The translations under genes were made by a program, and so were the position numbers. The notes under the pieces are model-generated. The model did not search any database. It worked only from the letters and a program-made list of their open reading frames with translations, and was not told the origin of the DNA. Shown piece after piece: positions 41,810 to 57,956 of a stretch of 64,000 bases of DNA (position 1 is the first letter of the stretch; each line of letters opens with the position of its first letter). Source of the DNA: Bacilli bacterium (GTDB lineage Bacteria > Bacillota_I > Bacilli_A > RF39 > UBA660); NCBI GenBank assembly GCA_017522615.1, contig JAFWYR010000003.1, positions 4,229 through 68,228 of the forward strand, in the 5' to 3' direction.

Positions 41810-41835
41810 GAAAAAGTAAATAATTTTACTTTTTC
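41810..41835 (-). terminator. Intrinsic terminator ending the T7SS effector operon
   Basis: Perfect 11-bp IR GAAAAAGTAAA/TTTACTTTTTC followed by T7 on the minus strand. Confidence 0.75.
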
Positions 41836-42068
41836 AAAACCATTTTTACATCAGAAATATAATCAATATATTTATCAGTTTCACTAATTTTTTTCTTATT
41901 CTTAATAGCTTCTTCCAACATCGCACATCTACTGTCAATATCAATTTCTGTAAACCACCCAAAAGGAAATAAATCATCGTTTCCTTCATAAACAGAACTA
42001 ACATCTCGATTATTAACCATTAAATAAGTCATTACAAGAAAGCTTTCCTTTGTATCTTTATCTTCCAT
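41826..42068 (-). CDS. 80-aa hypothetical protein (candidate immunity/accessory)
   Basis: GGGGGTG RBS; last gene before the terminator. Confidence 0.7.
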   Translation of the reverse strand: MEDKDTKESFLVMTYLMVNNRDVSSVYEGNDDLFPFGWFTEIDIDSRCAMLEEAIKNKKKISETDKYIDYISDVKMVLKK

Positions 42069-56300: not shown

Positions 56301-57956
56301 ATAAGGTTTAAAATTGATACTCCCATCTTCAGTCTCAACCATAGCCCTATTCTTTTCATCGGTTGCCCTTTCTACAAAAATTTTCTGCAAAAACATATCT
56401 AAAGTTTTCATTTCTTCAAAATTATCCGCAAAAAATCTTACAGAATAATCATTACTAAAAACATGAGGAATATCTTTAAAATCTGTCCAATTACCACTAG
56501 AATTCTCATCTAACATAAACACTAACTTTAAATCATCATAACCATGAAAAGTAACTAGTTGAAATAACAAATTTTTCAAAAAAGAAATTTTCTTATTTTT
56601 AATTCCTAAAATTGCACTAACTTTATTATCTTTAAAAGAATAAGCAATAGGAACATTTACCAAAACAGAAGCTCTTTCTATCGTATCTTTAGCTTTCTCA
56701 AGTAGATCATCCTCATCCATTGAAAACTCATCTTCCTGAAAATTAATATTAATATCTAAAGGAATATTACCTCGTCCGATTCTAGCTGTTAAAAAATCAG
56801 CCTGACTATTTTGTCTATTCCAAAGTAAAATTGACTTATTATTTATAATATCAATACAATCATTAACAGATAAAATCTTTTCATTTAAAATATTTGTCTG
56901 ATTTGTAATCACTCCGCTCAATTCTCGTTTTTTCTTTTCAACATATTTTCCATACTTCTCTATTCGCTTTTTTTCGTAACGTTCACGTCTTCTCTTTTGA
57001 AATTTTTTAGTAAGCATTGGCCAAAGTAACATTGATACAAGAGAAATAATAGCTGTTACTATTCTCATCCAGCTTTTATCGATAGTTGTCTGATTTGTAT
57101 ATAATTTATAAATAACATCTCCTAATGTTACTCCAGAAACAAGACCCATAGTAAGCATAGGTCCTATAGTAAGAAGTAAAGGCATATCCTCTTCATCCCT
57201 TTTATTTGGAGGTGAAGCAAAAGCCATCTCGTATGTTTCTATATATCTTCTTATTCTAGGTGTCTTATAAAAATAATCTTTTTCACTATATAAATTTTTA
57301 TGATTTATCTCTTTTTCTATTTTTTCATATCTACGTATTGGAATAGAAACACTCTTAAACTTTGAAAAATTAATAGATACATTATTCATTGGATTATTTA
57401 TAAGTATACAGTTATTAGTAAATACAAAACGTAATCCATAAAAGAAAAAAGCATCTCCACTATTAATAACAATTTGTTTATCGCTAATCAAAGTATCATT
57501 CCTATACACATAAGTACCTTGATCTACCACTAGCCTAAAAATACCACCAGCATAATTAATAGACACTTTCTGACTAGCAATCGAAGAAACATTATAATAA
57601 ATACTATCATTACTATTGTTTCCCAAAGTAAAATCACAATCACCATCAATAGAGTATAATTGATAACTATTGTCATAAGATTTTTCAACATAAAGTATAT
57701 AATTCTTATCAAAAGCTGTTATAGTATAAAAGCCACCAAGAAATAATTCAACCTCGTCAACTGGTTGACCATTATACTTGATAACTACGCCATGATTAGA
57801 TTTCATAAACCATTTATTATCTCTAGGGCTAATTGCTGTTAAACCATCACCGTCAAAACCAGTCTTTAACTGATAACTTCCCTCGTAAACATCAGGTAAT
57901 TCTAATTTATATATTTTAATATCATCAAACAACAATAGTCTCATACGAAAAGCCAC
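53388..57956 (-). CDS. essC: Type VII secretion ATPase EssC (FtsK/SpoIIIE)
   Basis: N-terminal FHA-like region; two TMs; [58 protein letters not shown]; further degenerate ATPase repeats. Likely start is ATG 57944. Confidence 0.96.
   Translation of the reverse strand: [1522 protein letters not shown]

Follow-up and report, generated by a model that had tools for sequence, protein, structure and literature searches.

A probable reduced type VII secretion system built around EssC and EsaB, with a giant toxin candidate, in small-genome gut Bacilli

The type VII secretion systems of Staphylococcus aureus (Ess) and Bacillus subtilis (Yuk/Yue), known as T7SSb, combine a membrane-embedded FtsK/SpoIIIE-type ATPase with an FHA N-terminus (EssC/YukB) and a ubiquitin-like protein (EsaB/YukD) with three further membrane partners: the pseudokinase EssB/YukC, the polytopic protein EsaA/YueB and the small membrane protein EssA/YueC. 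EssA, EssB and EsaA are all reported to be essential in S. aureus and B. subtilis. Here we describe a nine-gene cassette (positions 41826–57956, every gene on the minus strand) in a 64,000-nucleotide stretch of contig JAFWYR010000003.1 (assembly GCA_017522615.1, a Bacilli bacterium of the RF39 lineage; the whole stretch is called the window below), in which EssC and EsaB can be recognized but none of the three partners can. An earlier note on this DNA had given the same gene content, coordinates and single-strand arrangement, and our open reading frame (ORF) and profile analysis reproduces all of them.

The locus resembles T7SSb in its ATPase with an FHA-like N-terminus, two transmembrane (TM) helices and three FtsK-like domains, in the adjoining YukD/EsaB-type gene, in its WXG100-type small proteins, in polymorphic-toxin candidates with downstream immunity genes and in the DUF4176 genes of sister loci. 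It departs from T7SSb in that no EssB/YukC, EsaA/YueB or EssA/YueC is recognizable in the whole order, in having a fused two-hairpin chain and a divergent single WXG100-like protein where T7SSb has one EsxA homodimer, in the loss of the Walker A motif from the second ATPase domain (D2) of EssC1-type proteins, and in a main effector candidate without LXG domain. The YukB/YukC/YukD core has been argued to be conserved across T7SSb (Oka et al., PMC12637312), and the lineage described here keeps two of the three. In B. subtilis, YukD links the FHA, DUF and ATPase regions of YukB to one another and helps the YukC scaffold to bind (PMC12637312), and the 2025 structure of the B. subtilis core gives YukC roles as a cytoplasmic scaffold and in an extracellular ring.

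Types T7SSa to T7SSj have been defined from RefSeq genomes by Garrett, Higginson and Palmer (2024, PMC11217815). All of them have an ATPase and WXG100 proteins, most have a ubiquitin-like protein, and individual types add, for example, kinases, phosphatases, FHA proteins, Ig-rich envelope proteins or a β-propeller (PMC11217815). No published type matches an FHA-containing EssC with EsaB plus a fused WXG pair and nothing else (PMC11217815). The simplest type, T7SSg, has a similarly short parts list of two WXG100 units, ubiquitin-like TsxB and ATPase TsxC. However, TsgC lacks the FHA region that EssC keeps here, T7SSg includes the DUF5050 β-propeller TsgL and neighboring Tad pilus genes, and it is known from Acetivibrio and Paenibacillus rather than from small-genome gut Bacilli (PMC11217815). 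Among the cassette proteins we find no DUF5050 or pilus-family match above the Pfam gathering cut-off, and we see no Tad set at a second locus of the same genome (contig C8, described below).

We favor the reading, to which we assign a probability of roughly 0.7, that the island is a reduced, T7SSb-derived secretion system with its own toxin/immunity module, in which an EssC oligomer would act as the channel. Judged from sequence, EssC and the ubiquitin-like EsaB are the only conserved machinery genes that can be recognized in the cassette, EssB/YukC, EsaA/YueB and EssA/YueC appear to be missing throughout the order, and EssC would thus be the only membrane part. The genes are, in the order of transcription:

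53388–57956, minus strand: EssC1 (1522 amino acids, aa), T7SSb-type motor ATPase (TIGR03928)
53138–53398, minus strand: EsaB1 (86 aa), YukD/EsaB-type ubiquitin-like protein; the gene overlaps the end of essC
52717–53040, minus strand: p107 (107 aa), putative divergent stand-alone WXG100-like protein
51955–52701, minus strand: p248 (248 aa), putative fused pair of WXG100-type hairpins
51616–51873, minus strand: p85 (85 aa), small protein; the gene shares 17 nt with the start of p457
50259–51632, minus strand: p457 (457 aa), helical head, weakly WXG/LXG-like, and variable tail
42709–50238, minus strand: p2509 (2509 aa), giant multidomain polymorphic-toxin candidate
42083–42706, minus strand: p207 (207 aa), candidate immunity protein; the gene abuts p2509
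41826–42068, minus strand: p80 (80 aa), small conserved partner gene of p2509-type giants

EssC, EsaB and the membrane partners

EssC1 exceeds the cut-off of the T7SSb equivalog model TIGR03928 (968 against 778 bits), reaches 150.8 bits on PF01580, falls short of the cut-offs set for EccCa and EccCb (T7SSa), and has B. subtilis YukB as its best PDB match (9qks_G, E = 8.8e-118). The FHA-like region spans residues ∼1–226 and is followed by TM helices at ∼258–276 and ∼297–315. The N-terminus of EssC1 itself gives only a weak FtsK_SpoIIIE_N match, but aligns from residue 5 onward with that of the paralogue EssC2, which matches the Pfam FHA model with 36.4 bits. A Walker A motif is kept in the first ATPase domain (D1) alone (GTTGSGKS at 717), whereas D2 reads GRNSSDRE, compared with GVAGSGKQ in EssC2 and GGPNSGKT in a canonical relative. 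Most of the EssB-less EssC proteins examined likewise have a Walker A motif in ATPase domain 1 only, the exceptions being EssC2 and the L054/L057 pair.

EsaB1 has no match to Pfam YukD (PF08817), a word-indexed homologue search returned EsaB itself only, and the family profile found nothing significant among PDB sequences. An AlphaFold2 (AF2) model based on an 18-sequence alignment (predicted local distance difference test, pLDDT, 90.6) has the ββαββ order of a β-grasp fold, and the top Foldseek match in the PDB is the ubiquitin-like domain of EccD5 from ESX-5 (7np7_D2, TMq 0.78), followed by ubiquitin and SUMO. The C-terminus ends in ...LILFNY and lacks Gly-Gly. Fold and position, rather than Pfam, thus place EsaB1 with EsaB/YukD.

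The same genome contains a second, paralogous locus (contig C8, 31405–39903, plus strand) with the gene order EssC2-EsaB2-DUF4176-q217-q144-q656. EssC2, which is 40% identical to EssC1, has a Pfam FHA domain, and its D2 motif is Walker-like. It is preceded by a pilin-like gene of 120 aa, and nearby genes read as ftsY-ylxM-ffh. Two related metagenome-assembled genomes show further arrangements (loci L051 and L052): one carries two tandem EsaB-EssC cassettes on a single 14-kb contig, and in the other, short DUF4176 genes follow EssC in arrays of eight.

The earlier note had found EssA, EssB/YukC and EsaA/YueB unrecognizable at the locus and had named their discovery elsewhere in the genome as what would overturn its reading. 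We therefore searched the source genome, a metagenome-assembled genome of 0.96 Mb with 28% GC and 82% completeness, of which the window is one stretch, with hidden Markov models (HMMs), and found none of the three over cut-off. The EssB/YukC model (PF10140) gives one near-threshold match of 27.2 bits to part of a 155-aa protein, which we read as a spurious, probably RodZ-like hit (helix-turn-helix plus one TM segment, encoded beside pgsA). The EsaA model (TIGR03929), which covers the N-terminal domain only, has no match, and the EssA model (TIGR03927) has no match over cut-off and a weak one inside a 552-aa frame.

Because the source genome is incomplete, we extended the search to an even sample of 121 genomes from its order (73 genera; 120 genomes at least 90% complete). 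EssC is over cut-off in 66 of them, and the EsaB family (E up to 1e-5) is found adjoining EssC in 65. YukC, EsaA and EssA are over cut-off in none of the 121, where the EsaA search again used the N-terminal domain model only and the EssA matches are weak ones inside unrelated larger proteins, short TM proteins being hard to exclude by this method. Sub-threshold EsaA matches of 50–70 bits occur in five of the genomes, in 640–715-aa proteins unlinked to EssC. As a positive control we used the 12 EssC-positive genomes outside the order among 200 genomes of the class (four families, some with genomes of 0.6–1.0 Mb). The YukC model matches all 12 with 133–316 bits, mostly directly upstream of EssC, so it is not blind in this class. 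One of these loci (G026) has a classical layout by protein size and TM topology, with a WXG100 protein at 80.7 bits and YukC at 171 bits.

These numbers bear on the possibility that the system is a canonical T7SSb whose EssB, EsaA and EssA are present but were missed as very divergent, unlinked or unassembled. The gaps in the source assembly, the sub-threshold EsaA-like proteins and the difficulty of detecting small TM proteins such as EssA all lend it some weight. Yet three families would have to escape in every one of 121 nearly always well-completed genomes, 66 of them with EssC, while the same YukC model succeeds in all EssC-positive genomes of the sister families; the EsaA-like matches are confined to five genomes and do not lie beside EssC; and the single-contig genomes of the genus agree, the cassette of G011 having no partner genes nearby. 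We consider this explanation unlikely.

We opened eight cassettes in the genus and 17 from other gut metagenome-assembled genomes. From EssC and EsaB through the WXG-type and small helper genes, TM helices are predicted in EssC only, and single hydrophobic segments occur in p2509 and a few other effector-sized proteins encoded farther downstream. The maximum-likelihood tree built from 50 EssC proteins has a branch with a Shimodaira-Hasegawa-like approximate likelihood ratio test (SH-aLRT) value of 100 that separates the 13 EssB-linked proteins from all 37 EssB-less ones, in agreement with the suggestion made earlier of a reduced or divergent T7SS branch. The EssB-less side is made up of several deep paralogous lineages, two of which are present in the source genome.

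The loss of the D2 Walker A motif from EssC1-type proteins, together with the lack of partners on which the S. aureus and B. subtilis systems depend, could also be taken to mean that the cassette is a decaying remnant or serves something other than protein export. This appears very improbable to us, since 66 of 121 genomes have full-length EssC frames free of stops and often carry two to four paralogues, each beside an EsaB, and all of these proteins have an intact D1 Walker A motif. WXG-type genes are likewise kept and toxin/immunity pairs vary rapidly, a pattern typical of selection in genomes of ∼1 Mb.

Two further ideas were rejected. Recurrent neighbors of several EssC loci were considered as the missing machinery, but by sequence reading, rather than by HMM, they look like housekeeping genes (ftsY, ylxM, ffh, RNase J, penicillin-binding protein (PBP) and elongation factor P genes). 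Cell-wall loss was considered as the reason for the loss of EsaA, but the genome encodes homologues of PBP and of D-Ala-D-Ala carboxypeptidase, and the organism is therefore probably walled.

WXG100-type proteins and the giant effector candidate

No stand-alone protein of the source genome passes the Pfam WXG100 cut-off, and p248 is the only WXG100-like match. Its family has ∼198 cluster representatives, nearly all of 235–270 aa, with an invariant W46-x-G48 (W46-V-G48 in p248), an invariant Y218 with Asp or Glu222 at +4, and a conserved KW(Q/N)G at the C-terminus. The AF2 model (pLDDT 70; predicted template modeling score, pTM, 0.68) consists of two long helical hairpins (helices 10–45/49–93 and 141–176/180–228) with turns at WVG and FYG, hairpin 1 carrying the WXG and hairpin 2 the YxxxD motif. 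The first half aligns with a WXG100 profile built here (hhalign probability 79%, E = 1.6e-5), and the second half (154–216) reaches 21.5 bits on Pfam WXG100, below cut-off. As the WXG100 superfamily is characterized by a helix-turn-helix hairpin of ∼100 aa with W-x-G at the turn, and p248 has two hairpins, the first with an invariant WxG at the modeled turn, p248 can be placed in this superfamily with moderate confidence. Profiles of the p248 and p457 families found nothing significant among PDB sequences.

The counterpart of p248 on contig C8, q217, is represented in three sister genomes by two separate genes of 100 and 94 aa, and the one pair tested (G007) reaches 27.2 and 34.8 bits against a Pfam WXG100 cut-off of 27.3. 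On this basis we regard p248 and q217, with moderate confidence, as fused EsxA/EsxB-like pairs. As in the EsxA-EsxB heterodimer of T7SSa (ESX), WXG lies on one hairpin, YxxxD/E on the other, and a four-helix bundle may be formed, with both motifs in the matching halves of p248. In contrast to that heterodimer, the hairpins are in one chain with a linker of ∼45 residues, score below the Pfam WXG100 cut-off and belong to T7SSb-type machinery. A literature search found no paper describing such a WXG100 fusion.

The p107 family (A8) aligns with the WXG100 profile (A6) over 94 columns (hhalign probability 95%, E = 4e-8), and has an invariant Y92 in a C-terminal "YxxQDE", with a degenerate WXG position. 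Orthologues occupy the same position in G011, G021, G024, L039 and L042–L046, and we read p107 as a divergent stand-alone WXG100-like protein. WXG100-type proteins are thus present at the locus in variant form, as a profile match and a fused pair, although none reaches the Pfam cut-off. p457 has a conserved helical N-terminal domain of ∼190 aa (W44xDxNT, of which W44xD is conserved in the family) and a variable, repeat-containing, Ser/Asn-rich tail; orthologues share the N-terminus alone. The head gives weak WXG100 signals (Pfam 16.8 bits; PDB ESAT-6-like, E = 0.04, and SAG1039, E = 0.17; hhalign probability 33%, E = 4e-4). A near-perfect tandem peptide repeat, HSDY(E/K)GKVIDVDSKDFVSTRDEKDI, occurs twice in p457 (50600–50800). 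In L039, G011, G021 and G024, p85 orthologues immediately precede the p457 family, and p85 is possibly a Lap-like helper. The claim that all four small or helical genes carry variant WXG turns and YxxxD motifs therefore stands for p248 (WxG, YxxxD/E), p107 (YxxQDE, with WXG degenerate) and p457 (W44xD), but not for p85. The expectation that the small genes would prove to be WXG-like hairpins likewise holds for p248 by its model and for p107 by its profile match, with p85 again the exception.

p2509 is a giant multidomain protein that we consider a polymorphic-toxin candidate. Its regions are (residue numbers, minus strand throughout):

50–235: disordered, Ser/Gly/Asn-rich
235–560: coiled-coil-like
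∼590–915 (window 47490–48470): hydrophobic Gly/Ala-rich module in common with gut-phage giants
∼1175–1300 (window 46300–46720): two IreB-like repeats (PF06135, 39.8 bits; PDB 5us5 weakly)
∼1380–1720: HExxH region (HEIGH at ∼1458), conserved with P0156
∼2170–2500: C-terminal Cys/His domain, read as papain-like

IreB, usually a small free-standing phosphoprotein of the enterococcal IreK pathway, is the sole Pfam match above cut-off in p2509. Neither p2509 nor p457 contains an LXG domain (PF04740), which for the largest substrate candidate agrees with the first reading of the locus. A near-perfect tandem peptide repeat, SESSRV(Q/H)FNGAPIDQTNSVQGTQV, is found twice in p2509 (47300–47420).

The closest relatives of p2509 are other giants of 1934–3969 aa. 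P0156 directly follows a cassette of the order EssC-EsaB-106-320-83-522 (L039) and precedes an 80-aa homologue of p80, P0158 follows another EssC cassette, and L055_2284, whose N-terminus is LXG-like by eye, is encoded just upstream of an EsaB-EssC pair in a third locus. The last ∼330 residues of p2509 align with the C-termini of 480–930-aa proteins in sister T7SS loci, of P0157 and of P0158, with near-invariant C, FG, H and SSWG; we read this domain as a papain-like Cys/His peptidase. The proposal of a distinct substrate family is supported insofar as giant homologues recur directly downstream of such cassettes, but the toxin end of p2509 is also found on ordinary effectors of 480–930 aa. Since every protein carrying the Cys/His domain is followed by a p207-family gene, irrespective of the rest of the protein (G007 twice, G011, G018, G019, G021/L047), p207 is best read as an immunity protein for this domain. 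p80, whose homologue (E = 1e-15) directly follows P0156, is possibly a second immunity protein.

The ∼590–915 module is 25–30% identical to the N-terminal part of phage proteins of 2700–4100 aa (P0160, P0162 and P0165). Of the phage giants, three were looked up: each gene follows the portal, capsid and tail genes of a prophage whose portal is of the P22 type, and two of the proteins carry ART-PolyVal (PF18760). The phage form of the module, used as query, occurs in 22 IMG/VR contigs; neither this form nor the p2509 module has a match in GenBank phages. Module-bearing loci are L041, L058, L059 and L066–L087, and no database annotates the module.

p2509 thus shares its size, its mosaic build and a hydrophobic module of ∼300 aa near the N-terminus with polyvalent and other giant virion-associated phage proteins. 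Together with the lack of an LXG or WXG N-terminus, this raises the alternative that p2509 is a phage-derived or "polyvalent" giant that happens to neighbor the cassette but has another means of delivery or action. But p2509 lacks ART-PolyVal, no phage genes flank it in its chromosomal T7SS cassette, and its toxin-domain end is paired with an immunity gene candidate, the combination of C-terminal domain and p207 partner being common to the 480–930-aa effectors of sister T7SS loci. In addition, the closest homologues sit at EssC-EsaB loci, two of them directly after an EssC-EsaB-WXG cassette and one, with an LXG-like N-terminus, just upstream of the EsaB-EssC pair. On balance we consider this alternative unlikely.

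Proposed mode of secretion

In the reduced secretion system that we favor, an oligomer of EssC, the sole machinery protein of the cassette with TM helices, would itself form the channel. EsaB may clamp the FHA, DUF and ATPase regions of EssC as YukD does in B. subtilis, here without a YukC scaffold. The single-chain WXG pair p248 could act as an EsxA/EsxB-like co-secreted activator, p2509 and smaller effectors would be exported against competing gut bacteria, and p207, perhaps with p80, would protect the producer.

Several points weigh against this reading. The source genome is only 82% complete and all genomes involved are metagenome-assembled, and the absence of HMM matches is blind to membrane partners that are non-homologous, or extremely diverged, and encoded away from the cassette. 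The loss of the D2 Walker A motif could signify altered or weakened function of EssC1-type proteins. p248, p107 and p457 all stay below the Pfam WXG100 cut-off, the p248 model is of moderate quality (pLDDT 70), and p85 shows no similarity to the WXG100 profile. A whole-model Foldseek search of the PDB with p248 gave no significant match, what it returned being single-chain four-helix bundles of a generic kind (E ≥ 0.036), a comparison that is uninformative because the solved WXG100 dimers are two chains. Finally, as p2509 has no recognizable T7 targeting domain, its export route is argued solely from position.

The locus bears on which components a T7SS requires for carrying a folded helical substrate through a membrane. 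An entire order has retained EssC and EsaB and diversified them into several paralogous cassettes (the two loci of the source genome together occupy ∼2.6% of its 1-Mb assembly), yet has none of the three partners in recognizable form, and it may provide a naturally minimal system to reconstitute and to study structurally. Judged by gene content, uncultured gut commensals of the RF39 type probably carry polymorphic toxins as weapons, and the T7SS substrate repertoire would gain a fused WXG100 pair and giant effectors lacking LXG. A bolder version, which we put forward tentatively and think improbable as a whole, is that EssC plus one ubiquitin-like protein suffices as an autonomous type VII translocon, with a single-chain WXG100 pair feeding it, and that the giant LXG-less effectors enter their targets via the ∼300-residue hydrophobic module found also in phages. 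If so, this module would be a membrane-crossing device common to phage and secretion-system weapons.

Host genome and genomic setting

The nearest public relatives of the organism were sampled from human, rabbit, goat and rumen. In the window, the cassette lies between hrcA (40710–41738) and ligA (60270–62261), both likewise on the minus strand. The interval is as the earlier note had it, but because a 730-aa ORF lies between ligA and essC, ligA is not the immediate flank. The ligA-hrcA gap measures 18.5 kb here and 0.9–5.6 kb in four congeners, and the single-contig congener G011 has kept a short gap and carries an orthologous cassette ∼0.9 Mb away. Among 24 species sampled in the genus, roughly 9 have EssC, and 41 of the 73 genera sampled in the order have EsaB. 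Gap sizes, the displaced cassette of G011 and this patchy distribution identify the cassette as an accessory island that relocates and was here inserted between ligA and hrcA. Across the genus the cargo of this interval varies, the four congeners having unrelated small genes there (loci L061–L064).

Features that border the cassette or lie at its edges are:

58065–60257, minus strand: unannotated ORF (730 aa) between ligA and essC
57972–58000, minus strand: promoter-like site (TTGACT-17-TATCAT), 16 nt upstream of the essC ORF; consensus match only
41803–41834, minus strand: AT-rich hairpin (AAAGTAAA/TTTACTTT) and T-run overlapping the p80 stop codon; read from sequence

The 730-aa ORF contains an HExxH motif (CHETQH), has no Pfam or NCBIfam match and no predicted TM helix, and has two unlinked paralogues of 23–25% identity on contigs C17 and C18 of the same genome. 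We considered it as a new T7SS component and rejected it: besides its lack of TM helices and Pfam domains and its unlinked paralogues, it is absent from all related cassettes, and a hairpin with T-run that ends the 730-aa gene, followed by the promoter-like site, separates it from essC.

The proposal that the cassette has its own promoters and a final terminator draws on one good −35/−10 pair before essC and on the AT-rich hairpin after p80, which is a possible operon end. It is weakened by a terminator scan, requiring three G-C pairs, that did not call the hairpin at ∼41803–41834, and by the number of promoter-like matches in DNA of 28% GC, which is barely above expectation (150 compared with 118 after shuffling). 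The true start of EssC is likely ATG 57944, as the Shine-Dalgarno sequence GAAGGG is too near GTG 57956, and that of p2509 is likely ATG 50211 (MGFFRR...). Beyond the p80 hairpin, the segment 41738–41826 has a strong −35/−10 match and a CIRCE-like inverted repeat ahead of hrcA.

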